A DNA stretch of 64,000 nucleotides from a virus: the IMG/VR virus record IMGVR_UViG_3300023184_000062, positions 1 to 64,000 of that record; one strand, written 5' to 3'. The position numbers and the translations under genes are program-made. Positions 6,349 to 26,331 of this stretch are shown in pieces (within the stretch, counting starts at the first letter, position 1; every line of letters begins with the position of its first letter). Under the pieces are notes generated by a model. It did no database searches and was not told the DNA's origin. It worked only from the letters and a program-made list of their open reading frames with translations.

Positions 6349-6606
6349 ATGAGTAAAATGTTTACCGGAGAGCAAAAGATTAAGTTGACTCAACTTATCA
6401 ACGAGGGCATGGTAGTCCTACATGAGATTGATACTCTACGTGAGGGATTATCTGATACTGTAAAAGCTATCGCAGAAGAACTGGAAGTAAAGCCAGGCAT
6501 TCTTAAGAAGGCAATATCTGTCGCACACAAAGCAAGTCTTGGTCAAACAAACGCTGACCACGAAGAACTAAACACTATTTTGGAAACTGTGGGTAAAACA
6601 CTTTGA
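6349..6606 (+). CDS. T4 DsbA/GapR-like dsDNA-binding protein
   Basis: Helical EIDTLREGLSDTVKAIAEELEVKPGILKKAI pattern; AGGAG SD before ATG 6349. Confidence 0.6.
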   Translation: MSKMFTGEQKIKLTQLINEGMVVLHEIDTLREGLSDTVKAIAEELEVKPGILKKAISVAHKASLGQTNADHEELNTILETVGKTL

Positions 6607-9308: not shown

Positions 9309-9386
9309 ACTGGTGTTGACTATCGCAATATATTCCACTATAATACGTGATAGGAACTCCTAAATATTTTAAACAAAGGAAACAAA

Positions 9387-10118
9387 ATGAAAGATTATTT
9401 AAAAGACTTGATTGACCATACTCTTGGTCTTGGTACTATTGAACTTATTAAGGTCACCGGTACAGATACTGTAACGGCAATCAATGCTGTAGCAGAAAAT
9501 AAAAGCGTTATCATCAGTGGTACATTCAAAGACCCGATCGCCGACTTCATCGGTGTATTTGGTATGCCTAACTTGAACAAACTCAAAACAATCATTGGAT
9601 TTGATGAGTATGATGAAACATCTAAAATCAATGTTGTTCGTACTCAACGTGATGGTGTAGATGTACCTTCAACTATTCACTTTGAAACAAAGACTGGCGA
9701 CTTCATTAACGATTATCGTCTTATGCTTAAAAGCGTAGTTGATGAAAAAGTTAAATCAGTATCATTTAAAGGTGCTAAGTGGAATGTTGAATTTGAGCCT
9801 ACAGTTGCTGGTATTCAACGTCTTAAAAAGCAAGCACAAGCAAATAGCGAAGAAGAACATTTTGTGTTCAAAACTGATGGTAGTGATTTGAAAGTATTCT
9901 TTGGTGATGCTTCAACACACAGTGGTAACTTTGTGTTCAACACTCCAGTAACTGGTACACTAGCTGGTACACACAAGTGGCCCGTTAAAGAATTCTTGAG
10001 TATCATGGATCTAGTAGGTGACAAGACAGTTAAGATTAGTGAACAAGGTGCGACTGAAATCACAGTTAATAGTGGTATCGCAACATATGTTTACTTATTG
10101 CCAGCAAACAAGAAATGA
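9387..10118 (+). CDS. Sliding clamp (gp45-like)
   Basis: 243 aa two-domain alpha/beta pattern directly after PolB; ends TYVYLLPA. Confidence 0.65.
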   Translation: MKDYLKDLIDHTLGLGTIELIKVTGTDTVTAINAVAENKSVIISGTFKDPIADFIGVFGMPNLNKLKTIIGFDEYDETSKINVVRTQRDGVDVPSTIHFETKTGDFINDYRLMLKSVVDEKVKSVSFKGAKWNVEFEPTVAGIQRLKKQAQANSEEEHFVFKTDGSDLKVFFGDASTHSGNFVFNTPVTGTLAGTHKWPVKEFLSIMDLVGDKTVKISEQGATEITVNSGIATYVYLLPANKK

Positions 10119-10492
10119 TAAAGTACATTGCTAGTTCCGGTAAGTACATAAATGTAATTGGTGAATCTGTTGCCAATTACATTAATAACTATAGTGGGGC
10201 GCAAGGTGTCGGCAATATAAGATTCAATACTACTAATCAAAATATGGAAGTATATGACGGTAATGGTTGGATACTACTTCAGATGGGACACGTTAATGTA
10301 GGACTAAATGCTGATGCAGAATCAATACTTGATTGGGCTAAAAAGAAGCGTGATGAAGAACTTGAGTTAGAATCATTAGCAGAAACTAATCCTACTATCA
10401 AAGATTTAATGGAAACTATCAAGCAAAAGCAAGAACAAATAAGTATTGTCAAAGCCTTGATTAAGAAAGAAACAACAGTTGAAACAAGATAA
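10115..10492 (+). CDS. Hypothetical protein
   Basis: Overlapping start/stop in operon. Confidence 0.7.
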   Translation: MIKYIASSGKYINVIGESVANYINNYSGAQGVGNIRFNTTNQNMEVYDGNGWILLQMGHVNVGLNADAESILDWAKKKRDEELELESLAETNPTIKDLMETIKQKQEQISIVKALIKKETTVETR

Positions 10493-12020
10493 TCTATCAC
10501 AAAAGCATAAGCCAGAGTGGGCATTGTTCTTACCCGCAGTCAGTAGTTTCTATATTGCTGGCTTGGGTAAACAACGTAAGGGTCAAAACTATTTTGATCA
10601 AGCACGTATCCCTGCAAGTTTCAAGGGTGATGTTGAGAAACTAAACTTCTTAAATAGTAAAGAGGGTTTGTATTACTACAAGTGGGGTTTGTATAGTGCT
10701 GGTCATGCTAACTTAGATACTACAGTTGATGATCCATGTGAGTCAATCATCCGTGAACGTGAAGAAGGTACATTCATGTTGGGTGACTCTGGTGGCTTTC
10801 AGATTTTGAAAGGTCAATGGCCGGCTGATTGGAAGGATCCCAACTGTCCTCGTGCTATGATTAAACGTAAAGCAGTATTGACATGGATGGACACATACAT
10901 GGACTATGGTATGTGTCTGGACATCCCGTCACAATCATTAACTACGTTTGGCATGAAAGATAAGAATGGTAATAGCCTGCATGGTATCAGTACTATTGAA
11001 GAAGCAATATCTGCCACACATATTAATAACGAATACTTTATAAATAATCGCTCAGGGAAATGTAAGTTCTTAAATGTGTTGCAGGGTCGTAATCATACTC
11101 AATCAGATGATTGGTATGAGGAGATGAAGAAGTACTGTGATCCAAACATCTATCCAGACAATCATTTTAATGGTTGGGCATTTGGTGGTCAGAACAAGAT
11201 TGACATTCATTTGACCTTGCGTAGATTGGTTGGTATTATCCATGATGGATTACTACAAGAAGGCAAGCATGACTTGATTCATTGCTTGGGTACAAGTATC
11301 TTAGAGTATGCTGTATTGTTTACTGATATTCAAAAAGCTATACGTAAGTATCATAACCCAAGTCTACAGATTACATTTGATTGTGCTAGTCCATTCTTTA
11401 GTGCTGCCAAAGGTCTTGCTTACTTCAATACAACTATTGAGCATAACAAGAAATGGTCTTATCAAATGGAAAAGACTGCTGAAAAGAAAAGTTACGCTAA
11501 TGACAATCGTAAATACCGTGATGCTGTATTGGCTGATGGGATACATAAATCATTTACTGATAGCCCGGTAACTGATGCGTTAGTAATGAAAGATTTATGC
11601 TATCGTGGGTTAGGCTTTATTGGACAACATGGTAAAGAAACTAAAACAAGCTGGGATACGTTGAGTTATACATTGATTCAAAGTCACAATGTTTGGATGC
11701 ATATGAATGCGGTACAAGAGGCTAATCGTCAATATGAAACAGGTGTAGTGCCAAAGATGTTAACTCACAAGTTTGAAGGTGATAATTTCTTTGGTAACAT
11801 TGTTGATGAAATCTTTAGTAAGAAAACAAAGAAAGAATCATTAGATTTGATTGATTATCACAGTAGTTATTGGAAACAATTTCAATCAGGTAGTCAGGGT
11901 ATTAGCGGTAAGAAAACGGTTAATGCTATGAGTATGTTTGAAGAACTGTTTACCGTAGAGGAAGAACCAATTGAGGAAATAGAAGATAGCGATGAAGCTA
12001 TGTCATTAGTTTTGGAGTAA
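10479..12020 (+). CDS. dpdA: TGT-fold transglycosylase, DpdA-like (7-deazaguanine insertion)
   Basis: GDSGGFQI, LDIP, VLQG, GWAFGG, HCLG, FDCAS motifs; no tRNA-TGT Zn site seen; next to folE/queD/queE. Confidence 0.75.
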   Translation: MKQDNLSQKHKPEWALFLPAVSSFYIAGLGKQRKGQNYFDQARIPASFKGDVEKLNFLNSKEGLYYYKWGLYSAGHANLDTTVDDPCESIIREREEGTFMLGDSGGFQILKGQWPADWKDPNCPRAMIKRKAVLTWMDTYMDYGMCLDIPSQSLTTFGMKDKNGNSLHGISTIEEAISATHINNEYFINNRSGKCKFLNVLQGRNHTQSDDWYEEMKKYCDPNIYPDNHFNGWAFGGQNKIDIHLTLRRLVGIIHDGLLQEGKHDLIHCLGTSILEYAVLFTDIQKAIRKYHNPSLQITFDCASPFFSAAKGLAYFNTTIEHNKKWSYQMEKTAEKKSYANDNRKYRDAVLADGIHKSFTDSPVTDALVMKDLCYRGLGFIGQHGKETKTSWDTLSYTLIQSHNVWMHMNAVQEANRQYETGVVPKMLTHKFEGDNFFGNIVDEIFSKKTKKESLDLIDYHSSYWKQFQSGSQGISGKKTVNAMSMFEELFTVEEEPIEEIEDSDEAMSLVLE

Positions 12021-12024
12021 TAAT

Positions 12025-12234
12025 ATGTATAAACAACGAATTGCTAAACTACAACAACGGGCCATAGACCTTGACAAGGAAATCTTGAAGGCAGAAAAGG
12101 ACAGTAACTTTAACAAAGACGCCCTTAAAGCTATGCTGATAGACAGAAATGATGTATACTCTGAGATAAGAAGATATACAAAACTTCAATGGGATGAAGA
12201 TCACGAACGTGTTAACTTTGAGGATGATAGATAA
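12025..12234 (+). CDS. Small coiled-coil hypothetical protein
   Basis: ORF in operon. Confidence 0.65.
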   Translation: MYKQRIAKLQQRAIDLDKEILKAEKDSNFNKDALKAMLIDRNDVYSEIRRYTKLQWDEDHERVNFEDDR

Positions 12235-12686
12235 TGAATCAACAAGAACAAGCTGATATGGAAAAGCGTCAACGCATTAAAGATAAAGCATTTCGTACAA
12301 TCTTTGTACGATTTCAAAAAGAAGGTATTCACAAATACCCCGCAGCAGCAACAGACCCTAACTTGGCAACAGGTGATGAGTATGATGTTAGCTTTTTAGC
12401 AACTCCACATCGTCACATCTTTCATTTTGAAGTGACGATTGAAGTATTTCACAACGACCGTGATATTGAGTTTATTCAATTCAAGCGATGGTTAGAGAAT
12501 CAATATTCTCAAGGCATTCTTGCATTGGATTACAAAAGTTGTGAAATGATTAGTGATGACCTTTTTGAGGTTATTGCAACTCGGTATCCAAGTCGTAATA
12601 TCAAAATCAAAGTCTCTGAAGATGATGAGAATGGTGCTACGATTTCTTATAATAGAACTCAACCTTATCGTAACCTCGCTATTTAA
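12234..12686 (+). CDS. QueD-like T-fold protein, DpdL-like (putative CDG decarboxylase)
   Basis: EGIH...LATPHRHIF (LxxxHRHxF), DRDIEF, SCE, SEDDENG. Confidence 0.65.
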   Translation: MNQQEQADMEKRQRIKDKAFRTIFVRFQKEGIHKYPAAATDPNLATGDEYDVSFLATPHRHIFHFEVTIEVFHNDRDIEFIQFKRWLENQYSQGILALDYKSCEMISDDLFEVIATRYPSRNIKIKVSEDDENGATISYNRTQPYRNLAI

Positions 12687-12699
12687 AAGGAAATATAAA

Positions 12700-12906
12700 A
12701 TGGCAAAACAAACTTTTCAATCAAACCCACGTGTTCAACAAATCTTTGAGGACCTAGAGAAATATCTAGAATTCTGTGTGGATTTTGGTTATAAGTACAA
12801 TGAAGCAGAACTCTATGATCAACGGAGTTATGTATATCGTCAGTATACTAAATTTGCTACAGGCAAATTTGCTAAAGATCAATGGCAGGAAAACGCTCGT
12901 CCATAA
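12700..12906 (+). CDS. Hypothetical protein
   Basis: AAGGA SD before ATG 12700; stop overlaps next start. Confidence 0.7.
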   Translation: MAKQTFQSNPRVQQIFEDLEKYLEFCVDFGYKYNEAELYDQRSYVYRQYTKFATGKFAKDQWQENARP

Positions 12907-14081
12907 TGCGTAAGCTATATTACATGGGTCTTGAACCCTACAAAGCAAGGTATACTCTACAGTTACAAGACTGGAATACTACTGTGTTTGATCGTAGAGG
13001 CATCAACTATGTTGTAGTCCCCGGAGAAACACTAGGTAATGATCAAGCTATTGTAACTGGTCAAGTATTAGATGCACATGGTCGTACATATTTTGGTATG
13101 AGTCAACTTATGAATATAATTCGTATGATGAAACAAGGAGAATTGAATAATGAAGATGTTATCTACTTTGAGGACATGTTTCAGCCCGGAATTGAAAGTC
13201 TTCCGTACATTCTTAAACAAATCGACCCTATTCACAGGCCTAGGATTTTTGTTCGTTGTCTTGCCCAGTCTATTGATCCTGATGATTTTGTACATGTTTG
13301 GGGCATGTCAGAGTTTATGGGCCATTATGAAAAGATGGTTGATTCGTTCGTAGATGGTGTACTAGCAACTAATGAAGAAATGGTAATGCACATGAAGATT
13401 GCAGGTTGGAAGTCTCCAATCTACAATATCAGTGGGTTAGCATTCGGCAAGAGTGAAGTACAAAGTCGTGTCGCAAGTATCAAACCATTCAATGAACGAA
13501 AGAATCGTGTAGTATTCTCTGCACGATGGGATCAGGAGAAACAACCTGACTTCTATATGGACCTCATTGAACAATGGCACCAAGAAAAACCATACAATGA
13601 TGTTGAATTCTGTGTATGTAGCGGTGGTAAACTTAAATCAAATAGCGAAAGCTATATGGCACGTACACGTAATCTAGAAGCTAACGGTCTACTAAAAATC
13701 TATGAGGATTTAGAAAAGAATGATTATTACAATATTGTTAATGAATCTCGTGTTGTGTTCAATTGCGCTTTACAAGATTGGGTTTCGAATACGGTCAGCG
13801 AAGCAGATGCTCTTGGCTGCAATGTGTTGTATCCTGCATATCGTAGTTTTCCTGAAACTTTCGCTAACGATCCTGACCGTTTGTATATCCCTTGGTCTAT
13901 TGATAATGCTATTGGTAAGTTGCGCCGACTACTTCAAGAGCCTCATAAAAACATGGGAAAGATAAGTGACCGTAATGATAGCACAGTTGATAGAATCTGT
14001 GATATACTTGAAGGCAAGGGTGAGTCTATGCTACGAATGGGTGTAGACTATCGTAAATATACTAGAGAAAGCAAATACTGA
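12906..14081 (+). CDS. GT-B (GT4-like) glycosyltransferase
   Basis: FSARWDQEKQP, SEADALGCNVLYP...SFPE. Confidence 0.85.
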   Translation: MRKLYYMGLEPYKARYTLQLQDWNTTVFDRRGINYVVVPGETLGNDQAIVTGQVLDAHGRTYFGMSQLMNIIRMMKQGELNNEDVIYFEDMFQPGIESLPYILKQIDPIHRPRIFVRCLAQSIDPDDFVHVWGMSEFMGHYEKMVDSFVDGVLATNEEMVMHMKIAGWKSPIYNISGLAFGKSEVQSRVASIKPFNERKNRVVFSARWDQEKQPDFYMDLIEQWHQEKPYNDVEFCVCSGGKLKSNSESYMARTRNLEANGLLKIYEDLEKNDYYNIVNESRVVFNCALQDWVSNTVSEADALGCNVLYPAYRSFPETFANDPDRLYIPWSIDNAIGKLRRLLQEPHKNMGKISDRNDSTVDRICDILEGKGESMLRMGVDYRKYTRESKY

Positions 14082-14082
14082 T

Positions 14083-14370
14083 ATGTCAAGAATTCCAACA
14101 GACTTAACAGATGAAGAAATTGAAGAATGCATTGATGGCAGCAGCGATGTTGATATGATACGTGAAATCATGACCATGGAAGATGTGTGGGATGAAGGTA
14201 GTACTCATATCAATGAAGAAAACTTTGCTACACGTTTTGCTTATGCGATTGAAGGCTTCATTGATGCTGATGATCATACACCTGAATATGATGAAGCATG
14301 GGATAACAACTATGAGTGGGCATTGAGTATTGCCGAGAACATCAACGATTTATTAACTGAGGAAGAATAA
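14083..14370 (+). CDS. Highly acidic hypothetical protein
   Basis: ORF; D/E-rich. Confidence 0.65.
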   Translation: MSRIPTDLTDEEIEECIDGSSDVDMIREIMTMEDVWDEGSTHINEENFATRFAYAIEGFIDADDHTPEYDEAWDNNYEWALSIAENINDLLTEEE

Positions 14371-14371
14371 A

Positions 14372-14788
14372 ATGACAACATGGACATTAAAAACTCAACA
14401 TAAAAAAAGTGCGGTTGAAAAACAATATTGGTATAAAGACGGCAAACAAATTGTCCGTACTGAAGGATATCGTTGGGGAACATTCTATTGTGAAAGTGAT
14501 GAACAACCTGAAATTGATTTAGTCAATGAGGATGGTTATCGCATCGGTAGTGATGATTATGAATGGGAACTTGACAGTCTTGATGACGGATGTTATGCTG
14601 ATTGGGAATTCCCTGAGGATATGAGTGAAGAAGAACAAGATAAAATCATGGATGCATGGAATGAAGAATTCTATGAAGGTCTAGAAGAATTGGGTTGGAG
14701 TTGTGATGACACTGATTACATCCTTGAAGGTCCTCTAGAGTTGTTAGATGAAGATGATAATATTGTGGGTCAAGGCGATCCAAGCTAA
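14372..14788 (+). CDS. Acidic hypothetical protein
   Basis: ORF with GAGG SD. Confidence 0.7.
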   Translation: MTTWTLKTQHKKSAVEKQYWYKDGKQIVRTEGYRWGTFYCESDEQPEIDLVNEDGYRIGSDDYEWELDSLDDGCYADWEFPEDMSEEEQDKIMDAWNEEFYEGLEELGWSCDDTDYILEGPLELLDEDDNIVGQGDPS

Positions 14789-14812
14789 ATAAATTTTTAA
14801 AAGGAAAATAAA

Positions 14813-15001
14813 ATGAACGCACATAATGATATTAAAACACAATTGGCAGCATACGAAGCCGAACATGAAAAGTTTGAAAAAGGTAATGCAGCAGCAGGAA
14901 CTCGTGCCCGTAAAGCATTGGGTGAATTAGCTAAAGCAGTTAAGGCTCGCCGTAACGAAATTACCGCTGAGAAAGCCGCACGTAAAGAAGCTAAGGCTTA
15001 A
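14813..15001 (+). CDS. Histone H1-like (Hc1 family) protein
   Basis: KGNAAAGTRARKAL.EL.K..K..R signature. Confidence 0.8.
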   Translation: MNAHNDIKTQLAAYEAEHEKFEKGNAAAGTRARKALGELAKAVKARRNEITAEKAARKEAKA

Positions 15002-15003
15002 TC

Positions 15004-15210
15004 ATGGCAACCCGCAAAAAGAAAACAGAAACTATTGATGCTACTGGACAAGATGTAGTAAAGATAGTTAAAGGTAATCACTTAACAGTTACAACATTTC
15101 CAAATGGTAAAACTGAATTAGTTTGGGACGATGAAGCCCTATTGCGGGAAGTTACCGAAGCTATTGCTAGCGTTAAGCCAGCAAAAAAATCAAAAGCAAA
15201 ATCAAAGTGA
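15004..15210 (+). CDS. Small basic hypothetical protein
   Basis: ORF. Confidence 0.6.
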   Translation: MATRKKKTETIDATGQDVVKIVKGNHLTVTTFPNGKTELVWDDEALLREVTEAIASVKPAKKSKAKSK

Positions 15211-15282
15211 TAAATAAATATGTAAGCAGCACAACGGTTGCTTACATTTCAAAACACAAACCATCACAAAGGAAGGTTATCT

Positions 15283-15957
15283 ATGAGTTATAATAAAACA
15301 AAAACAGATCCAGAGTTGGGTCAAAAAGTACATGAACATTTGGTTAAGATGGGAGTTGAGACTCCTACTATTCCAAATAAACTAATTCGTACAGACAAAA
15401 TTCACATCATTGAAGGTCATTTCAAATCTATCATGGAAACAATGGGGCTTGACCTAAGTGATGATAGTTTGATTGAAACACCAAAGCGTGTGGCAAAGAT
15501 GTATGTCAACGAAATCTTTTGGGGACTTGACTATGATGCATTCCCTAAATGTACAGCAGTTGACAATAAGATGAAGTACAACGAAATGGTATGCGAACGC
15601 AATATCAATGTACAAAGTAACTGTGAACATCACTTTGTAGTTATTGATGGTCTAGCTACTGTCGCATATGTTCCCAATCAAAAAGTGCTTGGATTGAGTA
15701 AAATCAATCGCATTGTAGAATACTTTAGCAAGCGTCCACAAATTCAAGAACGATTGACTGAACAAATCTTCCACACACTACAATTTATTCTTGACACAGA
15801 AGATGTAGCAGTTATGATTGACGCACAACATTATTGTGTTAAAAGTCGTGGTGTAGAAGATACAGGTAGTAGCACTGTTACAAGTAAGCTAGGTGGCGGA
15901 TTCAAGTCAGACCCAGCTGCAAGAGCAGAATTCTATCAACTAGCAAGGAAACAATAA
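15283..15957 (+). CDS. folE: GTP cyclohydrolase I
   Basis: TPKRVAKM, CEHH, GLSKINR, RPQIQERLT, HYCVKSRG. Confidence 0.96.
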   Translation: MSYNKTKTDPELGQKVHEHLVKMGVETPTIPNKLIRTDKIHIIEGHFKSIMETMGLDLSDDSLIETPKRVAKMYVNEIFWGLDYDAFPKCTAVDNKMKYNEMVCERNINVQSNCEHHFVVIDGLATVAYVPNQKVLGLSKINRIVEYFSKRPQIQERLTEQIFHTLQFILDTEDVAVMIDAQHYCVKSRGVEDTGSSTVTSKLGGGFKSDPAARAEFYQLARKQ

Positions 15958-16196
15958 TGGGTTATCGCAAATCAATGGACTACAATAGTGTTCATCATCA
16001 AATTTATATGGCTGGAGTGGATCTGAATGATGATTATTACCATGACGGTTTCACCCAATGGGAAATAAAAAAAGATTTACATCGTATCAAATGGTTGCTA
16101 GATGAAATAATGGCTGATGCTCCAACATTTGCAGGAGAAGAAGAATTCTTAGATGAACATTCTAAAGTAAAGATGTGGAGAACATTGAAAAAATGA
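15957..16196 (+). CDS. Hypothetical protein
   Basis: Overlapping ORF in operon. Confidence 0.65.
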   Translation: MGYRKSMDYNSVHHQIYMAGVDLNDDYYHDGFTQWEIKKDLHRIKWLLDEIMADAPTFAGEEEFLDEHSKVKMWRTLKK

Positions 16197-16660
16197 TATT
16201 CAATAGAATTAAAGAATTAAAACTACAAGGCCTAAAGATAGGTATTGTATTCTCACAATTTGATATACTACATGCTGGTCATATCGCAATGCTTAGTGAA
16301 GCCAAGAATCATTGCGATTACCTCATTGCTGGATTACAGAATAACGCACAGTGGGATAGACCAGATAAGAATGCGCCCATTCAAAGTATTGTTGAACGCC
16401 AAATCAGTTTAAGTGCTGTGCGTTTTGTAGATGAGATAGTTGTTTACAATACTGAAAAAGATTTGGAAGATATCTTATTGACATTGCCCGTAGATGTGCG
16501 TATACTAGGGGTTGAGTACATGGAGAAAGACTTTACTGGACGTGCAATCTGTGAGAAGCGTAAGATTGAATTAGTATTCAACAGTCGTGACCACAGTTTC
16601 AGTAGCAGCAGTTTACGTAAACGTGTATCAGAAGCAGAACAAAATAAGGTAAAACAATGA
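16193..16660 (+). CDS. TagD-like cytidylyltransferase
   Basis: FDILHAGH, ER...L.AVRFVDE, R...FSSSSLR. Confidence 0.88.
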   Translation: MIFNRIKELKLQGLKIGIVFSQFDILHAGHIAMLSEAKNHCDYLIAGLQNNAQWDRPDKNAPIQSIVERQISLSAVRFVDEIVVYNTEKDLEDILLTLPVDVRILGVEYMEKDFTGRAICEKRKIELVFNSRDHSFSSSSLRKRVSEAEQNKVKQ

Positions 16661-17514
16661 CAAAAAAAATTCTAATTATGGGCTTGCCAGGCGCAGGAAA
16701 AACATTCTTAGCTACGGCATTGAAGAAATACATTGAAGAACATTCAGGTATTCATCACTTTCCAATGGAACGATCAATCAACATTGAATATGTTCCGCAT
16801 GACTACAAATGTACTGTAGATTGGTTCAATGCTGATGAAATTCGCAAAAGATTTAATGATTGGGACTTCAGCCGTGAAGGTCGTATTCGTCAATCATTAC
16901 GTATGGCTGAGTTTGCATTGAAATGTACTAGCGACTTTGTTATCTGTGACTTTGTTGCACCATTAGTTGAGATGCGTAATAACTTCAAAGCTGATTGGAC
17001 TATCTGGGTTGATACCATTGACCAAGGTCGTTTTGATGATACAAATAAAGCATTTATTCCACCAGAAGTATATGATTTCCGTATCACAGAACAAAACGCT
17101 GACAAGTGGGCAGAGTTTATTGGGCAACATATACTAGACAATCGCCGTAGACCAGTCTTTGATTGGAAGAAAGAAACGGTACAGATGCTAGGTCGTTGGC
17201 AACCATGGCATGCCGGACATCGTGCATTGTTTGAACGATTGATAGCAAAGACTGGGCAAGTTGTTATTCAAGTACGTGATGTACAAGGATGGCAAGGAAG
17301 TAATCCTTTCGCTATTGAACAAGTTAAAGGATTTATTCGTAGAGATTTGGATCCAATCTTTCAAGGACAATATGAGATACAAGTTGTACCTAATATTGTT
17401 CATATTGGATGGGGACGTGGTGTGGGTTATACATCAGGTGAGGAAACATTTGATGAAAGTATCACCCAAATTAGTGCCACAAATATCCGAAAAGAAATGA
17501 ATTTAGGTAAATAG
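16657..17514 (+). CDS. APS-kinase-like P-loop kinase fused to HIGH-type nucleotidyltransferase
   Basis: GLPGAGKT, NADEIR, DFS.EGR.RQ; C-terminal GRWQPWHAGH and ISATNIR. Confidence 0.8.
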   Translation: MTKKILIMGLPGAGKTFLATALKKYIEEHSGIHHFPMERSINIEYVPHDYKCTVDWFNADEIRKRFNDWDFSREGRIRQSLRMAEFALKCTSDFVICDFVAPLVEMRNNFKADWTIWVDTIDQGRFDDTNKAFIPPEVYDFRITEQNADKWAEFIGQHILDNRRRPVFDWKKETVQMLGRWQPWHAGHRALFERLIAKTGQVVIQVRDVQGWQGSNPFAIEQVKGFIRRDLDPIFQGQYEIQVVPNIVHIGWGRGVGYTSGEETFDESITQISATNIRKEMNLGK

Positions 17515-17587
17515 ATATAGCGGTCTTCGGTCATCATCCCGCTTTACAAATTCTGCTGCCTATGCTATAATAACATAGGAGAACATC

Positions 17588-18067
17588 ATGGCAAAATATA
17601 TTTCAACAAAGACTTACAAACAAATAGGTCCAGTAGCTTATCGTCAATGGCGTGCCGATAGTCATTGCAATCTAATACATGGCTACGCACTTTCATTTCA
17701 TTTTGAATTTGAAGCTGATACATTAGACGCACGTAATTGGGTAACAGACTTCGGGGGTCTAAAGCCTCTAAAATCTGTATTAGAAGATTGGTTTGATCAT
17801 ACATTATTAGTCGCACAAGATGACCCAATGCGTGAACATTTACTTGAGTTAGGTAAACTGAAATTAGCAAAGATTACAGAAGTTGAAAAGACTGGCTGTG
17901 AGGGTATTAGTGATTTCTTATACGAATACATTAACACTATTCTATTGCCTAGCTTTGGTGCTAGTGAAGCAGAACGTGTTTGGTGTAGCAAAGTAGAAGT
18001 AAGAGAAACTGACGCTAACATGGCAATGCGTGTTGGACATAGAGAAGATAACGAATTTCAGGATTAA
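17588..18067 (+). CDS. queD: 6-carboxytetrahydropterin synthase
   Basis: HCNLIHGY, DFGGLK, FDH, GCEG, VRET. Confidence 0.9.
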   Translation: MAKYISTKTYKQIGPVAYRQWRADSHCNLIHGYALSFHFEFEADTLDARNWVTDFGGLKPLKSVLEDWFDHTLLVAQDDPMREHLLELGKLKLAKITEVEKTGCEGISDFLYEYINTILLPSFGASEAERVWCSKVEVRETDANMAMRVGHREDNEFQD

Positions 18068-18068
18068 C

Positions 18069-18917
18069 ATGGCAAAATTAAAAATCGCAGAACTATTCTA
18101 TAGCATTCAGGGCGAAGGTCGATACATGGGCGTACCCTCAGTCTTTCTACGTACATTCGGATGTAACTTCAAATGTGCTGGCTTTGGTATGCCTAAAGGA
18201 GAACTAAGTCGTGAAGTAGAAGATATAGCTGCCCGTGTTCATTACTATACTGATTATAAACAACTACCATTAGTTAGCACAGGATGTGATAGCTATGCTA
18301 GTTGGGATCCTAGATTCAAAGACCTAAGTCCAATGCTTGAAACAGATAGTATTGTTGATAGCATTATGGATATGCTTCCATACAAGCGTTGGATGAGTGA
18401 ACATCTTGTTATCACAGGGGGTGAACCATTGCTAGGTTGGCAACGTAGTTATGTGGATTTACTTTCACATGAAAACATGCGTGGATTACAAGAATTAACT
18501 TTTGAAACTAACGGTACTCAATCATTACAACAAGACTTGAAAATCTATTTACACCAGTGGGCTATTAATCGTTCTAAGGGAGCAATTACATTTAGCGTTA
18601 GTCCTAAACTAAGTATCAGTGGTGAGAAGTGGGAAGAAGCAATAAGACCTGAAGTTGTATATGAATATACTCAAGTGGGTCATGTATATCTTAAGTTTGT
18701 TGTAGCAAATAAACAAGATGTAGAAGAAGCACAAGAAGCGGTTAATGAATACAGTAAGCGTGGCTTCAGAGGTCATGTATATTTGATGCCTTGTGGTGGA
18801 GTTGAAAGTTTATATAATATGAATGCTAGAACAGTTGCTAATGAAGCAATGCGTTTGGGCTGGCGTTATAGTGATAGATTACAAGTGCCATTGTTTAAGA
18901 ACGAGTGGGGAACTTAA
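18069..18917 (+). CDS. queE: 7-carboxy-7-deazaguanine synthase (radical SAM)
   Basis: ELFYSIQGEG..G.PSVFLR.FGCN, TGGEP, ETNG, SVSPK. Confidence 0.92.
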   Translation: MAKLKIAELFYSIQGEGRYMGVPSVFLRTFGCNFKCAGFGMPKGELSREVEDIAARVHYYTDYKQLPLVSTGCDSYASWDPRFKDLSPMLETDSIVDSIMDMLPYKRWMSEHLVITGGEPLLGWQRSYVDLLSHENMRGLQELTFETNGTQSLQQDLKIYLHQWAINRSKGAITFSVSPKLSISGEKWEEAIRPEVVYEYTQVGHVYLKFVVANKQDVEEAQEAVNEYSKRGFRGHVYLMPCGGVESLYNMNARTVANEAMRLGWRYSDRLQVPLFKNEWGT

Positions 18918-19011
18918 TGGATTATTTTTGGGGATTCTTACTTGGATATATAGTAGGTGTATTATACATGTGCTATCGTTCCAATATAGATGCTAGAGTG
19001 GATAGAGAATA

Positions 19012-19257
19012 ATGCCATCAAGTGATTGGCCTACACAATCAGCCGGTGATTATCATTTTAAAAAATGTATTATGGGTAGAAAATTAAAGTTTACCCTATT
19101 GCCTAGACGTTGCTATATAACAAAGCGTATAATATGGTTAGAGAGTGCATATTGTATTACCGCAGGATATCAAACAGGATTCGCAGATTGGTTGTTTGAA
19201 CATCGTTGGTATGATAAAGATGAATATTTAGTAGCAAGATTAAAGGATTTAATATGA
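19012..19257 (+). CDS. Hypothetical protein
   Basis: ORF. Confidence 0.6.
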   Translation: MPSSDWPTQSAGDYHFKKCIMGRKLKFTLLPRRCYITKRIIWLESAYCITAGYQTGFADWLFEHRWYDKDEYLVARLKDLI

Positions 19258-19448
19258 GATTTGAAATGCGTTGGCTCATTACAGCAGGGTGGGATGGACC
19301 TGAAAAAATACTACAATATCGGTATGAAACAGAAATAACAGACTATTCTACACAGAACCCTAGAACAGGTGGGTTTCTTAAACGTGCAGGATTTACAGAA
19401 TGGTGTACTGTGCCTGAAGTAGATGAGGTATGGAATGCGGACATATAA
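19254..19448 (+). CDS. Hypothetical protein
   Basis: ORF. Confidence 0.55.
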   Translation: MRFEMRWLITAGWDGPEKILQYRYETEITDYSTQNPRTGGFLKRAGFTEWCTVPEVDEVWNADI

Positions 19449-20793
19449 TAAAAGAATAGGCTTTCTAATTGCCGATCAGCACTTTATCCCACATGGTGGA
19501 ATAGGACAATTTGCTAAAGGCTTTACTGAAATGTGTCAACGTATCAACTGGAAAGTTGATATCATACTAGACAAACAACCAACAAATGAGTTTAGCGACT
19601 ATGTAAAATCATTAGGTGCTAATATTGTCTACCCTGAAAATCCATTACGCTATTCATCACATACTGCTACGTTCGCATTTAGTGATAGTATTAACTTTGA
19701 AAAAATGGTTAACTTCAGAGAAAGTATACTACAGGCTTTTCAAACTAATATATATGATATGTTAATATGTAATACTCAGGAAGCAATGAGTGCTGCTTAT
19801 GCCATGGGCATTGGTAAGTATATCCCAGTAGTATTCTATACACATTCATACAGCATGGTCTTCCGTGATGAACAAGATTTCAGCGATGTATGCATAGATG
19901 AATATCACAACTATTTTAATAAGCATATGGAACTATCACATAGTTTTGTAGGCACACAAAGTCAAAAGAATGTTGATGAGATGACTAAGTATGGAGCAAA
20001 GAATGTTTCACTATTACGTATGCCATTAAGTGAACGTGGATTACTGGACCCTAGTATTGGTCCTCGTAGTGGTGTATTGTTTATTGGACGATGGGAAGAA
20101 CGTAAGAATCCAGCCGCCTATATTAAAGTAATGAAAGAAACAGGGTTGCCCTGTAAAGTAATGACTAATGGTAATGGTGCTAAGAAGTTTGAAAAAGCAT
20201 TTAGTGAAGCTGGTATCACAGATTATGAAATCAAAATTGCTATCGTTGGGCAAGAGAAAGTAGATTTCATTAAGAGTTGTAAAGTATTCTTTATGCCAGC
20301 ATTGGGTGAGAACTATCCATTTGCCTTTAGCGAATGTCTCGGACATATGCCATGTGTTGTATTGGATAATCAAGAATGGTCTGATAACTTTGATAGTAAG
20401 TATTTCTATAAAGAGAAACTAGCCAATGCTGGAAATCTAATTAAATTATTATACAATGTTGACAACTACTATGATACCGGCGCATTAGATTATATCAATC
20501 AATTAGACAATGATACTGCACAAGGTTGGATACAATTCTTAGATAACTTTGTAGCAAAGCGTAGCAATACTAATGCCGCAAAGATTAACAACTATGAAAC
20601 AGTATGTTATAGAGATTATATTAAAGAGTTAGATCGTGGGCATTTGGCTCGGGAAGATTTTGAAAGTGTATTGGCTAATCGTCATAAGTTTATCATTAAT
20701 ACATACACAGATGATAATAGCTATTTAAGTAAAGACCCGGTTTATAAACCAATTGAAGAGGAAACAGGTGAAAGTCTGTTTGAATTTGTATGA
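19435..20793 (+). CDS. GT-B (GT4-like) glycosyltransferase
   Basis: HGGIGQF, LFIGRWEERKNP, MPALGENYPFAFSEC. Confidence 0.85.
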   Translation: MRTYNKRIGFLIADQHFIPHGGIGQFAKGFTEMCQRINWKVDIILDKQPTNEFSDYVKSLGANIVYPENPLRYSSHTATFAFSDSINFEKMVNFRESILQAFQTNIYDMLICNTQEAMSAAYAMGIGKYIPVVFYTHSYSMVFRDEQDFSDVCIDEYHNYFNKHMELSHSFVGTQSQKNVDEMTKYGAKNVSLLRMPLSERGLLDPSIGPRSGVLFIGRWEERKNPAAYIKVMKETGLPCKVMTNGNGAKKFEKAFSEAGITDYEIKIAIVGQEKVDFIKSCKVFFMPALGENYPFAFSECLGHMPCVVLDNQEWSDNFDSKYFYKEKLANAGNLIKLLYNVDNYYDTGALDYINQLDNDTAQGWIQFLDNFVAKRSNTNAAKINNYETVCYRDYIKELDRGHLAREDFESVLANRHKFIINTYTDDNSYLSKDPVYKPIEEETGESLFEFV

Positions 20794-21611
20794 AAAAAGT
20801 ATTAATAACAGGTAACAGTGGTTACATCGGTAGTCATCTTAGTAAGATGCTACGTACAGATTATGAGATATATGGATTGGATATTAATCCATCACAATAT
20901 CCTGTAACCGATCATTATCAACTTAATATCAACAAGTTGTTTAATATTGATATGGAATTTGATGCGGTAATTCATTTGGCAGCATTAGTTAATGTTAGTG
21001 AAAGTGAACGAATGCCCATTCAATATTATATCACCAACTTGAATGGCACAATGAATGTTATTAACAAGGTAAAGACAAAGAACTTTATCTTTGCTAGTAC
21101 AGGCGCGGCACAAGATTGTGAAAGTGCTTATGGCATCAGCAAAAGAGCAGCGGAAGATGTGGTACGTGAGTATTGTACTCAACATAGTCCCAAAGATTAC
21201 ACTATCTTTAGATTCTATAATGTAATCGGTAGTGATGGGTTTGCCCCAACTAACCCTGATGGACTAATGTATAACTTGATGAAAGCTAAAGAGACGGGTG
21301 AGTTTACTATTTTTGGTACAGACTATGGTTCGTATGACGGAACTTGTGTGCGTGATTATGTTCATGTTAATGAGATATGTGACGCATTACGTAGTGCTAT
21401 TGAGAAGCCAAGCAATCAAGTAGAATGCTTGGGCCATGGAGTTGGACATTCAGTTAGAGATATTGTTAATCTATATAAGAAGGTTAACAATGTTGAATTT
21501 CTAGTAAAACACGGTCCAAGAAGAAAGGGTGACTTAGCAGTATCTGTATTAGATAATGTGTCACCCTATATGAAAGAGTTATACTCTTTGGAAGAACTAC
21601 TTAAGGTCTAA
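20790..21611 (+). CDS. NAD-dependent NDP-sugar epimerase (GalE-like extended SDR)
   Basis: ITGNSGYIG, HLAA, YGISK, RFYNV.G, DGTCVRDYVHV. Confidence 0.9.
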   Translation: MKKVLITGNSGYIGSHLSKMLRTDYEIYGLDINPSQYPVTDHYQLNINKLFNIDMEFDAVIHLAALVNVSESERMPIQYYITNLNGTMNVINKVKTKNFIFASTGAAQDCESAYGISKRAAEDVVREYCTQHSPKDYTIFRFYNVIGSDGFAPTNPDGLMYNLMKAKETGEFTIFGTDYGSYDGTCVRDYVHVNEICDALRSAIEKPSNQVECLGHGVGHSVRDIVNLYKKVNNVEFLVKHGPRRKGDLAVSVLDNVSPYMKELYSLEELLKV

Positions 21612-21983
21612 AAACTTTATTTGGTTTGTTGAAAACACAACATACCAAACATCATCTCCCTCATCGTGTTCAGCAATGATACTATCATATCCGTCTGCTA
21701 TTAATTCTTCACGTAGTTCTAAATAATCTTCTTTCTCTAGTCCTACTAACTCATCCATTGTTGCTTCATATGTCTTGTTCATGGTCAATGACGCAGATAT
21801 GATATATTTTCCGTATAGTTTTGCTTCACGAATAGAAGTAGTAAAAAAATGTCCTAGTACAGCATTTGGATCTCCTGTACTAGTTCCTAGCGTAGCATTA
21901 TCAAATGACGAGAATTTATTGTTAGTACCGTGATAGGCAACAACACCCGAACTACTTTCAGCAATAAATTCTCTTGCTCTCAT
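21597..21983 (-). CDS. ADP-ribosyltransferase-like protein (polyvalent-protein ART type) with MRAREFIAE leader
   Basis: AYHGT...F..FD, GHFFTT...A..YG, GYDSII...WYVVF..NQIK. Confidence 0.7.
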   Translation of the reverse strand: MRAREFIAESSSGVVAYHGTNNKFSSFDNATLGTSTGDPNAVLGHFFTTSIREAKLYGKYIISASLTMNKTYEATMDELVGLEKEDYLELREELIADGYDSIIAEHDEGDDVWYVVFSTNQIKFLDLK

Positions 21984-21984
21984 T

Positions 21985-24024
21985 TTAGTGTCTTAACAAT
22001 AGTGTACTTAATACACCAGGATCGTTAGCACTAACATCACCTTCGCCCGGAGCAACAATAACATTGTACTTCATTCCAGCTGGGATTGAATTTCTCTTGG
22101 CCATGTACTCATCATAATTTAGTATAGAGTTAGAACTTAGTCCATACTCTTTAGCCAAACGCTGTTTCAATTCTTGTGTAGCTTGGTTATCACGGGTTAC
22201 CCAACGACCGCCCTTACCTTTTTCGTCTGCGCCCTCTTTATCTAAGTTACCCTTCTCATCCTTAGCTAACAAGTCCCAGAATAGTTTTTCAGGAACGATA
22301 CGACTATTCTTAGTTTTGTCTAAGTTTGGATCTTGTGCTTTAACTTGTTTCTCTTGCTCAGTGTTGGCACCTTCACTCCAATTGATAATGAAGTTGTCTG
22401 GCTTCTTAGCTAATGCTGCTCCGGCCATCTTAGTGTAAGCATAGAATCTAACATCAGGATGTTTTGCTGCCATCTTCAATGCCATGTCTAAGTATTCTGG
22501 ACTAAAGAAGTCGCCAGCATCATGCCAACGAACTGTTGTTTGCCAACCATTGGGGAATTTCTTATCACCCTTTGCTGCTGCACTTGCTTCTTTTGATATC
22601 TCACTGCTTAGTTGATTAAAGAAACCATCAGGGTCATTCAATAGATATGTAAGTATTCTTCCATCACTTTGCCATGCTGCCTTAAATTGTATCTTACCGC
22701 CCTTCATAGCGAAACAATCTACTTTACATGAGCCGGCGCCTGGACATGTGTTAACAACGATTAGATTATTAGTTTGTTCATCTAATGCGATTCCCACTAA
22801 TGCCGCGAACCCAACGTTGAAGAATTGTTCAAACTCTCCATTGCTATGCTTCATTTTTTCATTTTGCTTTAATAATGCTTTAGGACGAATTGCTAATGTT
22901 TTCTTAACCGCATCTTCATCATATGTTTTACCATCTGGACTTAAGTATGTAACTACGCTACTACGATGGATGTAGGGCATCTTGTATTTGTCACCTTTAG
23001 TCTTACCTGACACAAACTTTTCGTTACCCTTTTTATCTACTTTAACTTTTCCTGTTTTCTTGTCAATATTAGGTGTACCAACGATACGGTTCATGTAGTC
23101 TTGAAATTCTTGACCACCCAAATCACGGGTTTGTGCTGGTAGTTTAGTTGCTTCACCTAGACCAGATAGTTTACGAATTCTGTCTAAGTGTTCTTGACTC
23201 TCTGCCATGCCTTTCTTAGCAAAGCCGGAGTTTTGAAAACTGCCTTCGATATACCATTCCATGTCATCATCATTTACTTTACAATTTAATACTTGAACAC
23301 TATAACCTTGATCATCTAACCAGGCTTGTGCTTCTTGTATCATGTATTCTTTTGGCACTTCTGAATCAATTACGCCAATGTTTGCACCGCTGACGTCCAT
23401 ATCTTGCCACCAGCCATCACCTACTATGTCAGTCATTTCATCATCTGTGTACCAACGTCCTGATTCACCGCCGCCCGATCCCTGAGCAAATTCGTTTAAC
23501 GAGCCTTCCGCCACACCTTCTTTTAGACTTGTTATATAATTCACAGCAGGTTTTAATCCTGCAAATTCTTCTACAAAAGCACGACCAGGGCCATGTCCAT
23601 ACGCAATATATAGGCCTTCGGCAGTGTCAGGCTGATTCTTTATCACATACCCAATCATTTCTTTGCCACGATATATATGCCATTCTTTTTCATGACCGTC
23701 ATCATGAACTTTGCTCACATTAACATCGGGCGTTACAGAGCCTTCCGCCATACCTTCTGTTGCTGACTTTTTTAACGCATCAGCAGTTGGTGCACCTTTA
23801 CTTCCCGGTGTACGCATATGCTCACCACTACCATGCTTGATACGCTCACGTTTGGCGTGAATGTTAGCCCATAATCCGGGCTTGCCTTCTTCAACTTCTT
23901 CATCACCCTCATCAGGCATGTCACCAGCTTTAGCAACGAATTGCTGAGGTGTCATAATCTTGATACCACTTGGGGCACCTGGCATACTTGGCTCTGCGCC
24001 CTCGTGTAATTCTTTAAAGTTCAT
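21985..24024 (-). CDS. Modular probable head protein with C-terminal GP88-like (radical-SAM-related) domain
   Basis: TCPGAGSCKVDCFA, VRWHDAGDFFS, FYAYTK; N-terminal modules split by G(M/V)AE(G/S); start set at MNFKELHE. Confidence 0.7.
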   Translation of the reverse strand: MNFKELHEGAEPSMPGAPSGIKIMTPQQFVAKAGDMPDEGDEEVEEGKPGLWANIHAKRERIKHGSGEHMRTPGSKGAPTADALKKSATEGMAEGSVTPDVNVSKVHDDGHEKEWHIYRGKEMIGYVIKNQPDTAEGLYIAYGHGPGRAFVEEFAGLKPAVNYITSLKEGVAEGSLNEFAQGSGGGESGRWYTDDEMTDIVGDGWWQDMDVSGANIGVIDSEVPKEYMIQEAQAWLDDQGYSVQVLNCKVNDDDMEWYIEGSFQNSGFAKKGMAESQEHLDRIRKLSGLGEATKLPAQTRDLGGQEFQDYMNRIVGTPNIDKKTGKVKVDKKGNEKFVSGKTKGDKYKMPYIHRSSVVTYLSPDGKTYDEDAVKKTLAIRPKALLKQNEKMKHSNGEFEQFFNVGFAALVGIALDEQTNNLIVVNTCPGAGSCKVDCFAMKGGKIQFKAAWQSDGRILTYLLNDPDGFFNQLSSEISKEASAAAKGDKKFPNGWQTTVRWHDAGDFFSPEYLDMALKMAAKHPDVRFYAYTKMAGAALAKKPDNFIINWSEGANTEQEKQVKAQDPNLDKTKNSRIVPEKLFWDLLAKDEKGNLDKEGADEKGKGGRWVTRDNQATQELKQRLAKEYGLSSNSILNYDEYMAKRNSIPAGMKYNVIVAPGEGDVSANDPGVLSTLLLRH

Positions 24025-26331
24025 TTTTCTTATTCCTAATAAATTGTTCAGCAAGCATCACTAATTCATGTAGTTCTTCAATAGATTCGCAATGCCATCT
24101 ACGTAGACTTTTATTTATGTTGCTGTTTGGATCGTGTGCAGTTTTCGCACCAGTACGATGTTTCTTCATGCCACGCATTCTAGCACAGAAGCTAGCACGG
24201 CGTTTTGCTGCCTTACTACCTTTTTTAAGTTTGCTTGGTTTAGTTGTAACTGCTGTTTGAATCTTACTACCAGGATGACTACGGCGATAACTACTTACAC
24301 TCTTTTTACTCATCCCACCTGCACGTTTATTATTGTGCTTTGACCAATTCTCGCCCTCAGAGAAACTTGCTTCTTTTTCATCGGTAGTGTCACCGGTTAC
24401 TTTATATGTTTTTCCATGTACTACAAATGTGTCTTTGTCGGCTTTTATAGCATTCATTCTAGCATCAGTAAACTCATTGGATTCATCAACTTCTTTCTTT
24501 GCCATACCGATACCATCACAAGCACCGCATTTATACTTTTTAGCGCCCGGTACGTCATTAGCAGGAAGAATTTTTCCGTCAGGTGCTTTCCATAAAGTAC
24601 CACGACCTTTACATCTTTTACAACTAGTATTAGGGTTCTTTACAGTGGCACCGGGCATGTGGTCTACATCATACGGGAAGCCTTCCGCCACACCTTGATT
24701 GACGCTTCCTGTTGTTAGTTTAGCTGGGGCATAAAATGGTAGTGCGTGTTTGCCTAACAACTTAGCACTTAGTATATCAACAACATCTAATTTACCTTTA
24801 GACTTTAAAAGTCCAATTAGGACTTCTGGACCTTTAGTTTGTAATAATGTTAATAATTCTTTTTTATATGCTCCTGCTAATGCTACACCTACACCTGCAG
24901 CCGGACCGGCTACAGTGGCAGTCAATACTCCTGCTAGAGCGGATAATCCATAAGAAACTATGTCTTTAAACTGATACTTCATTTCTTCATTTTCTTCTGG
25001 AGTAACAGGTTGATTATTGGCATACTTTTTCATCACATCAATCATTATAGATGTTTCTTTTGCTTCTTTTCTTGCTTTGTCAAGCGCATTGCTTACAATA
25101 ATTTTTGTAACTGTTGGAAACACTGAGTATAGATTAGCTATCGTTCCTGGATCTATTTCATTGATATTTTCTTCGTCAATAGTTTGTTCACTAATTACTG
25201 TCCATAAAGCATCGTGAAGTTTATTTAAACCCGATGAATCTTCCGCCACACCTTGCAATCTAGGATCTGTGGATAATCTACGACCGTGATCATCTAATTT
25301 CTTAAACACAATGGCAGCGACACGATTAAAGATTGTTGTGGAAATATTATTTTTAGCAAAATAACGGTCTAACGCACGATAAATGGTACTATCATGGGCC
25401 ATATCATTTAACTTTGCTAAGTTTTTATCAGTAGTCAGTTTATCAGCAACATCTAGAGCCTGTCTATTCAAATCTTCTGAGCCTTCCGCCACACCTTGCG
25501 GGTTGCCTAATCTCCTAACAGGAATTTTATATTGTTGTACCAAGCGATCAACTTCTGGCGGAATGTCAGCAGGCAATACAATTTCTTTGATTTTCCAATT
25601 GTCAACCAACACTTCGTGGTGAACTGATGTATCCATACTTAACGTAGGATCAATTTGTCCAGGCCGACTAGAATATTTTTGTTGTCCTCGTTGTCCAGCA
25701 GTCATCTTATATTGATCTGACGCCAAATCTCCACGCCCACCGATTGTAATATGACCGTCAAGTACAATACCAACCGTTGGATTAGATCCGCCTCCCCACC
25801 TTTTTTTCCCCAAAGATTCAGTATTTGGTGCTAGGTATGCGCTTAGTTCAATCTTGTTATTCACTTTTCCTTGTAAGAATGACTCCAATTGGTTCAATGG
25901 AGCCCAGTGTACTTTTAGCATTGATGCAGCTTTTTTAGCATCCATTTTTTGTTGAAAGAGTTTTTTGAGATATCGCTCGGCCCCATATGTTCGTGTATTG
26001 GTGGCTTGTGTTGCAGCCTGATCTTTTGCTTGAAGTTGTTTGTACTGTGCTTGCTCTTCTGGAGTCATCCACGATACATCATTAAACTGTTTATTGTATT
26101 CTGCTGATGACGCCGCCGCGTCTGCTTTGGCTTTTGCTGGATCAAGAAGATCGGCAAGTGCTGTTTCCCAGGCCTGTTTATTTTCATCCGGATACTTGGC
26201 AAAAAAATCATCTGCAGGAATAAATCCACTTGTGGCAGGATCTTTAATTGTTTTTGCCTGTGGATCGGTCATAACGCCGGCAATTTTTCTAGCTTCTTTT
26301 AATTGTTTGTTTGAGCCTTCCGCAACACTTT
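23501..26331 (-). repeat. Dispersed 19-bp coding repeat, minus-strand consensus AAGGTGTGGCGGAAGGCTC
   Basis: Copies at 23501-23519, 23738-23756, 24678-24696, 25236-25254, 25479-25497, 26313-26331. Confidence 0.9.

Follow-up and report, generated by a model that had tools for sequence, protein, structure and literature searches.

The question raised by this locus is what kind of DNA modification a virus makes when genes for a 7-deazaguanine base lie among genes for glycosyltransferases (GTs) and sugar-nucleotide enzymes. The DNA analysed here (the window) spans the initial 64 kb of a 100.7-kb virus contig from IMG/VR (IMGVR_UViG_3300023184_000062; CheckV completeness about 29%). Relatives of this phage reach 303-335 kb, and one of them is 95% complete. 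The genes in question occupy positions 10479-21611, where they form a co-oriented block, all on the + strand, downstream of the DNA polymerase gene polB (Table 1). From their sequences, we put the chances at about even that this region is a deazaguanine DNA-modification module with sugar decoration.

The proposed route would run as follows. FolE, QueD and QueE together convert GTP into 7-carboxy-7-deazaguanine (CDG), and would do so here. A transglycosylase of the tRNA-guanine transglycosylase (TGT) fold would remove guanine from DNA and put the deazaguanine base in its place, a role suggested by its fold and its conserved catalytic aspartates. The first glycosyltransferase (GT1) would transfer a sugar from a nucleoside diphosphate (NDP)-hexose to the deazaguanine, either ahead of insertion, on the free base, or afterwards, within the DNA, and in the lineage of the window a second one (GT2) would add or vary a second sugar. 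DNA modified in this way would be protected against nucleases of the host. Between CDG and insertion, DpdL would convert CDG to 7-deazaguanine, following the proposal of Cui et al. 2023 (PMC10516641), who defined DpdL and DpdA3 and suggested that DpdL is a CDG decarboxylase. In a full-text search of the literature, neither a glycosylated deazaguanine in DNA nor this module turned up in any paper.

Linkage of GT1 to the deazaguanine genes

The initial annotation of this DNA had listed a DpdA/TGT-like enzyme, a DpdL-like T-fold protein, FolE, a cytidylyltransferase, a kinase-nucleotidyltransferase fusion, QueD, QueE, two GTs and a GalE-like epimerase, and every one of these calls was borne out when checked. 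The T-fold protein was recognised as DpdL by its motif LATPHRHIF, which fits the LxxxHRHxF pattern that replaces the CxxxHGH of QueD, and by 34% identity (E 2e-14) to the founding DpdL, that of Cellulophaga phage phiST (CGPG_00067); it is 55% identical to the DpdL of phage ACP17. The QueD of the window carries CxxxHGY and is 70% identical to ACP17 QueD, and the QueE gene is matched by the NCBIfam models for QueE below their cut-offs. As annotated initially, the window contains neither QueC nor QueF, and neither was found above cut-off in the 100.7-kb contig, which is about 29% complete. The only QueC signal in the contig (11.9 bits) fell on a TilS-like PP-loop gene upstream of polB, and the 95%-complete relative gave zero QueC matches. 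The gene identities thus support a module of FolE, QueD, QueE, DpdL and a TGT-fold transglycosylase that does without QueC.

A search for a phosphoribosyltransferase in the lineage of the window returned none. Such a gene lies inside the cluster in a second clade of GT1 (L094:12469-13390, followed by a gene for a HIT-domain protein) and in cyanophage BUCT-ZZ01 (L001:7093-7554), where it might salvage the released guanine or build a deazaguanine nucleotide.

Co-inheritance of the GT with the transglycosylase and DpdL had been set beforehand as a test, and it came out strongly positive, in numerous phage lineages as well as in bacterial loci. Eighty close IMG/VR loci keep the order polB, 243-aa protein, TGT-like gene, DpdL and GT1. 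In the window, GT1 was correctly placed two open reading frames (ORFs) past DpdL, with a conserved 68-aa ORF in between. The second GT1 clade is only about 22% identical to the first and was sampled with an independent query; here, DpdL lies immediately upstream of GT1 in 79/80 loci, and the TGT-like gene, FolE and QueE flank GT1 wherever the contig extends. Among cultured phages, the PA5oct-like Pseudomonas jumbo phages carry the TGT-like, GT and DpdL genes in a row, and Phosso carries DpdL and then the GT. In ACP17, cyanophage BUCT-ZZ01, Xanthomonas X1/BUDD and Burkholderia BCSR5, the GT stands beside DpdL and an ACP17-type DpdA, a subfamily different from that of the window enzyme. None of these phages is classified with PA5oct, ACP17 belonging to Busanvirus and BUCT-ZZ01 to Kyanoviridae.

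Not all phages with DpdL carry the GT. A GT1 profile, which gave 325-485 bits in four GT1 phages used as positive control, found no match anywhere in the genomes of seven phages that have DpdL, namely phiST, Faecalibacterium phage Roos, Rhizobium phage RHph_I1_18, Vibrio phages Bakedbeans and D479, Aeromonas phage Ahp1 and Chryseobacterium phage MA9V-3. GT1 is therefore an addition that only some DpdL systems have. The only DpdL product so far measured, 2'-deoxy-7-deazaguanosine (dDG) in phiST DNA (Cui, Hutinet et al., NAR 2023, PMC10516641), stems from a system that lacks GT1. In two of the seven phages, the annotated coding sequence that holds DpdL is longer (Bakedbeans, L174:7215-8366, 383 aa; MA9V-3, L177:5452-6333, 293 aa), which may reflect a true fusion or an annotation extended too far; in MA9V-3, the N-terminal half of this product is HNH endonuclease-like and carries no pathway information.

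The association extends to bacterial chromosomes. When the species genomes of GTDB were scanned with a profile of the ACP17-clade GT1, 42 loci were recovered, of which 8 look like phage contigs binned into metagenome-assembled genomes (MAGs) and 28 are chromosomal loci of alphaproteobacteria (hosts include Magnetospirillum, Methylobacterium, Pelagibacterium, Devosia, Shimia, Sulfitobacter and Ochrobactrum). GT1 is adjacent to a window-type TGT-like gene in 28/28 chromosomal loci, compared with 16/28 that contain DpdL, and its tightest partner is therefore the transglycosylase and not DpdL. Genes for a YhhQ/Vut_1-type transporter (upstream of GT1, 20/28), a MASE1 histidine kinase (15/28), a LuxR-type regulator (17/28) and small tyrosine recombinases (15/28) recur in these loci, which often hold a QueD-like gene too (L187-L217, for example L188 of Shimia ponticola and L198 of Magnetospirillum aberrantis). 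In the two loci viewed in detail, the neighbours are HEPN, ABC-3C, AAA_15 and CoiA-nuclease-like genes and integrases. Two conserved proteins of the bacterial loci were searched for solved relatives and none was found. The bacterial loci may be islands for DNA or tRNA modification or for defence.

The transglycosylase and the glycosyltransferases

The 513-aa transglycosylase has no match in Pfam, NCBIfam or PHROG. The TGT model PF01702 was not reached above its gathering score by the window protein, and 3/59 homologues matched it at E about 0.01; a profile built from the 59 homologues found no match among PDB sequences. As the sequence libraries were silent, the identity of the protein was settled by a fold search. 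Its AlphaFold2 (AF2) model (pLDDT 91.6) has the (beta/alpha)8 fold of TGT, and the best 50 PDB matches in Foldseek were all tRNA-guanine transglycosylases (probability 1.0, TM-score about 0.5-0.57 on the target). The residues S73, D103-S104-G106 (within a DSGGFQ motif), D148, H268-G271 and D301 are invariant in the 59-sequence alignment. D103, D148 and D301, taken to include the catalytic Asp of the DSGG(F/L)Q motif and the nucleophile Asp downstream of it, correspond to the DSGGLQ and SYDS motifs in ACP17 and BUCT-ZZ01 DpdA, and they may be assigned to numbered residues of Z. mobilis TGT.

The initial annotation had suggested a comparison with DpdA1-4, of which the enzyme is not a recognisable member. 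By hhalign, its profile is related to ACP17/BUCT-ZZ01 DpdA with 96% probability across the catalytic core, and to phiST DpdA3 with 60% probability over 82 columns only. For this reason we treat it, on profile comparison, as a large subfamily in its own right within the TGT/DpdA superfamily, distinct from DpdA3. Its cultured carriers are the PA5oct-like phages and Phosso.

A fold shared with tRNA-guanine transglycosylases raises the question whether the substrate is tRNA. In that case, the TGT-like enzyme would act together with the GTs to give tRNA a glycosylated anticodon deazaguanine, comparable to the mannosyl- and galactosyl-queuosine of eukaryotes, an alternative that we judge improbable. 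It would account for the fold and for the YhhQ/Vut_1-type precursor transporter of the bacterial loci, and QTMAN, a GT-B enzyme, does glycosylate queuosine in tRNA. However, the genes lie directly after polB among replication genes, DpdL is known from DNA systems only, and the DNA of PA5oct is itself reported to be modified at G and to resist restriction enzymes that cut at G sites (preprint; the modified G was deduced for PA5oct without mass spectrometry). Furthermore, QTMAN_N (PF12038) gave no match at E <= 1 in the contig, BUCT-ZZ01, ACP17, PA5oct or Phosso, and GT1 was consequently rejected as a queuosine mannosyltransferase of the QTMAN type.

The AF2 model of GT1 (pLDDT 79) shows the two Rossmann domains of the GT-B fold. 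The best structures were MshA, BshA, sucrose-phosphate synthase and glycogen synthase (Z 23-24.6), as well as PimB'; 336 residues were aligned with MshA at Z 24.6, and about 900 chains were found at Z >= 8. The pterin glucosyltransferase BGluT, which binds a 2-amino-4-oxo ring, was matched at Z 21.4, and one viral 'DNA alpha-glucosyltransferase' model stood at rank 26 of the structure matches (TM-score 0.42). R215, K220 and E307 are invariant and fit the donor-site pattern of GT4 enzymes, R-x4-K and (D/E)-x7-E, in which the first acidic position is occupied by E in the ACP17 clade and by D in the clade of the window; R215, K220 and E307 would be the GT4 catalytic residues. Most homologues of GT1 are 391 aa long, and the Glycos_transf_1 domain (PF00534) is present in some close ones. 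By tblastn, the 68-aa ORF was detected immediately before GT1 in 75 loci from the lineage of the window, 48 from the second clade and 3 from MAGs.

The identity of GT1 reaches 82-90% in the phages of four loci (L012, L015, L027 and L028) despite 56-58% identity of polB and 34-36% of the transglycosylase, and it is the best-conserved cluster protein in BUCT-ZZ01 (63%). This reflects either extreme constraint or recent exchange, with some bias, since the loci were picked by GT1 similarity.

Several points weigh against a sugar-bearing base in the DNA of GT1 phages, which stands as a prediction from these genes. The main weak point is the chemistry. 7-Deazaguanine offers no hydroxyl or amine at C7, and the sugar would need to be attached at C7/C8, N2 or O6, for which we know of no precedent. 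Part of the co-occurrence of GT1 with the module is synteny inherited within one broad jumbo-phage group. Twelve of the 28 chromosomal loci lack DpdL, and GT1 is therefore not strictly dependent on the DpdL product. GT1 itself reaches 23.8 bits with PF00534, below the gathering score of 26.4; the family is acidic (34/34 members examined, median pI 5.4), its nearest structures are small-molecule enzymes, and the T4 enzymes AGT and BGT are absent from its best 50 PDB rows. The acidity of GT1, its small-molecule neighbours including the pterin glucosyltransferase, and the unusually large size of the transglycosylase make us lean towards an order of steps in which the free base would be glycosylated before insertion.

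The acidity of GT1 and its resemblance to GT4 small-molecule enzymes, BGluT among them, would also suit plain dDG (or the corresponding CDG nucleoside, dCDG) in DNA as in phiST. GT1 would then be a helper that leaves no sugar, acting by transient glycosylation or activation of an intermediate or as an obligate partner of the transglycosylase. This is unlikely in our opinion, although more than one observation speaks for it: the DpdL of the window resembles that of a phage that makes dDG, the tightest partner of GT1 in bacteria is the TGT-like enzyme, and dpdL plus dpdA of ACP17 on their own, like those of phiST, yielded no dDG in E. coli (PMC10516641). On the other hand, phiST and six other DpdL phages do without GT1, which is thus not generally required for dDG, and a helper role leaves the recurring GalE and the second GT unexplained.

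For the proposal of a sugar-decorated base, the donor can be approached through GalE. The best PDB matches of the GalE-like protein of the window are all UDP-glucose 4-epimerases (E 1.5e-32); with its 273 aa it scores 160.9 with TIGR01179, under the cut-off of 262.3. In this sublineage, the short GalE-like gene follows GT2. In a divergent freshwater sublineage (polB 56-66% identical), a full-length GalE gene comes directly after GT1, scoring 307.8 with TIGR01179 in locus L012. As a GalE-type epimerase adjoins GT1 or GT2 in both freshwater sublineages, a UDP-hexose donor is suggested, and the simplest guess is that it is probably UDP-galactose or UDP-glucose. GT2 has GT4 families as its Atlas neighbours. 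It is present in 37 of the 80 close loci, and is 43% identical to a gene in the BUCT-ZZ01 cluster and 33% to one in a Shimia locus (E 7e-65); homologues occur in five roseobacter loci.

A self-made NDP-sugar or CDP-polyol had been envisaged at the outset. The position of GalE near the GTs supports a UDP-hexose; the cytidylyltransferase and the kinase fusion, by contrast, are absent from many close relatives, being found in 44/80 and 24/80 close loci, respectively. The best solved relatives of the cytidylyltransferase are ethanolamine-phosphate and glycerol-3-phosphate cytidylyltransferases (PDB 3elb and 1coz). The kinase-NMNAT fusion has homologues in phages of the Sanovirus type from Xylella, Stenotrophomonas and Xanthomonas, and in Stenotrophomonas phage Bhz60 (Sanovirus; L178:4565-5741) the homologue lies directly after a NADAR-domain gene. 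This neighbour favours NAD or ADP-ribose metabolism over sugar activation; judged by its sequence context, the fusion is probably NAD- or ADP-ribose-related, dispensable and not part of the pathway.

In close relatives (e.g. L007, L009, L019 and L060), the identity of GT2 is bimodal, about 42-46% or 70-97%, independently of polB identity. QueD behaves likewise, and the pattern looks like allelic replacement of tailoring genes.

The variable cytidylyltransferase and fusion, and the bimodality of GT2, as expected of swappable cassettes, are the kind of pattern that passengers would leave. The GTs and sugar-nucleotide enzymes would in that event glycosylate virion proteins, the host envelope or a hydroxymethyl-pyrimidine, and surface glycans are indeed commonly built by GT4 enzymes. 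We hold this to be highly improbable, as GT1 has kept its neighbours in several phage families, in bacterial loci and next to DpdA enzymes from two unrelated subfamilies. The hydroxymethyl-pyrimidine route is weakened: no hydroxymethylase was evident, and the sole thymidylate-synthase homologue in the 95%-complete relative passes the ThyA equivalog cut-offs and is a canonical thymidylate synthase. As for the glycosylated deazaguanine interpretation of the initial annotation, the module and the co-inheritance of its GT have stood up; membership in DpdA1-4 and a role for the cytidylyltransferase and the kinase fusion found less support.

Gene inventory and neighbouring features

The genes of the module and polB are given in Table 1. 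The module had been placed after polB and a clamp gene; polB was confirmed, and the clamp at 9387-10118 could not be verified, this label being found only in the annotation of the Phosso counterpart.

Table 1. Positions in the window, strand and supporting evidence for polB and the genes of the module
Feature	Coordinates	Strand	Evidence or remark
polB	6603-9308		Identity confirmed
TGT-fold, DpdA-like transglycosylase, PA5oct type, 513 aa	10479-12020	+	Fold match, conserved Asp
Small ORF between transglycosylase and DpdL, 69 aa	12025-12234	+	Recognisable in 27/80 close loci; without family match
DpdL, T-fold protein, 150 aa	12234-12686	+	LxxxHRHxF motif; phrog_17812 E 1e-32
Conserved 68-aa ORF	12700-12906	+	Stop overlaps likely GT1 start (TAATG)
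GT1, GT4-like retaining-type GT-B glycosyltransferase	12882-14081	+	Likely start 12906
Hc1 histone-H1-like DNA-binding protein	14813-15001	+	PF07432 E 1.5e-14
FolE, GTP cyclohydrolase I	15238-15957	+	PF01227 E 1.9e-62
TagD/ECT/RfaE-domain-II-like cytidylyltransferase, optional	16175-16660	+	PF01467 E 6e-10
P-loop kinase fused to NMNAT-like nucleotidyltransferase, optional	16657-17514	+	Domain matches
QueD, 6-carboxy-tetrahydropterin (CPH4) synthase, PTPS	17588-18067	+	PF01242 E 1e-14
QueE, CDG synthase, radical SAM	18030-18917	+	phrog_2076 E 2.7e-54
GT2, second GT4-like glycosyltransferase	19423-20793	+	Weak PF00534 match
GalE-like UDP-hexose 4-epimerase, short form, 273 aa	20790-21611	+	PF01370 E 1.5e-29

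The Hc1 protein, of the chlamydial type, lies within the block of deazaguanine genes, is flanked by two small, very acidic proteins (14083-14788, pI about 4) and recurs in 38 related loci. Just upstream of polB, the gene at 5693-6301 (+ strand) encodes a 202-aa PP-loop protein that scores 128 bits with TIGR02432 (TilS N-terminal domain, cut-off 93.6) and is devoid of the tRNA-binding C-terminal domains of TilS. The + strand block stops at 21611; it is followed on the - strand (21597-24054) by genes for a 128-aa protein with an ART-PolyVal ADP-ribosyltransferase domain and a 689-aa GP88-domain protein. No riboswitch was found with Rfam at E <= 1 over 9000-22500, scans for promoters and terminators did no better than chance, and megablast of the region against cultured phages gave no match.

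Relation to known systems and significance

One of the closest known systems is that of phiST, which shares with the window FolE, QueD, QueE, a DpdL with LxxxHRHxF, the lack of QueC, a TGT-superfamily enzyme and a place beside the DNA polymerase gene. However, no GT1-family gene occurs in its genome, and its DpdA3 (CGPG_00065) has 259 aa, compared with 513 aa for the window enzyme. Beyond what phiST has, the window holds a GalE-like epimerase gene, genes for two GT4-like enzymes and, coupled to GT1, a small ORF. The paper on the phiST system makes no mention of a glycosyltransferase (PMC10516641). A complete substitution by dDG has been described in vibriophage VP1 (preprint).

The PA5oct-like jumbo phages (Wroclawvirus) resemble the window in gene order, with polB, a 243-248-aa protein, a TGT-like enzyme (34% identical), a GT1 family member, DpdL and QueE. 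PA5oct differs in two respects: its GT falls into the other deep clade of GT1, at about 22% identity, and no GT2 homologue was found in it.

In the glucosylation of 5-hydroxymethylcytosine (hmC) by T-even phages and in base J, a GT-B enzyme likewise transfers a sugar from a UDP-sugar to a non-canonical base, as is predicted here, and second sugars are lineage-specific. There, however, the acceptor is the hydroxymethyl group of a pyrimidine, whereas the base of the window would be a purine analogue with no obvious hydroxyl, and among the best 50 PDB rows for GT1 the nearest structures are GT4 small-molecule enzymes, with AGT and BGT absent. To our knowledge, all sugar-bearing DNA bases are pyrimidines (glucosyl- and arabinosyl-hmC, and base J). 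The QTMAN and QTGAL enzymes of eukaryotes come nearer as to the base, since they decorate a 7-deazaguanine derivative in a nucleic acid after insertion by a TGT-type enzyme; yet their acceptor is the cyclopentenediol of queuosine in tRNA, and QTMAN_N is not detectable in the window contig.

The bacterial Dpd system (DpdA, DpdB and DpdC with restriction genes) also inserts 7-deazaguanine into DNA with a TGT-family enzyme and is encoded in chromosomal islands. The alphaproteobacterial loci with GT1 and the TGT-like gene resemble such islands in being flanked by recombinases, the two viewed loci lying near defence-type genes. Unlike Dpd islands, they showed no DpdB or DpdC, and have instead a GT4-like enzyme, often with a YhhQ-like transporter and a two-component system.

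Our wider prediction, which we hold at slightly less than even chances, is that the DNA of the window lineage carries 7-deazaguanine with one or two hexoses. The same would apply to PA5oct, ACP17, BUCT-ZZ01, Phosso, hundreds of uncultured phages and possibly the alphaproteobacteria whose loci pair GT1 with a TGT-like gene. No sugar-decorated purine is known in DNA, and this would be the first; its maker would be a GT4-like enzyme acting in concert with DNA transglycosylases of a new, large subfamily.

Modules of this kind are very common, the transglycosylase family alone counting 834 clusters at 50% identity, and cultured phages carry it, including the therapy-relevant Pseudomonas phage PA5oct. 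The failure of ACP17 DpdA and DpdL in E. coli could have its reason in the omission of the GT gene that lies between them. If true, a glycosylated deazapurine would be a new nucleic-acid chemistry and would offer phages a new escape from restriction, CRISPR and DNA-glycosylase defences; the bacterial loci suggest that the same chemistry may serve cells too.

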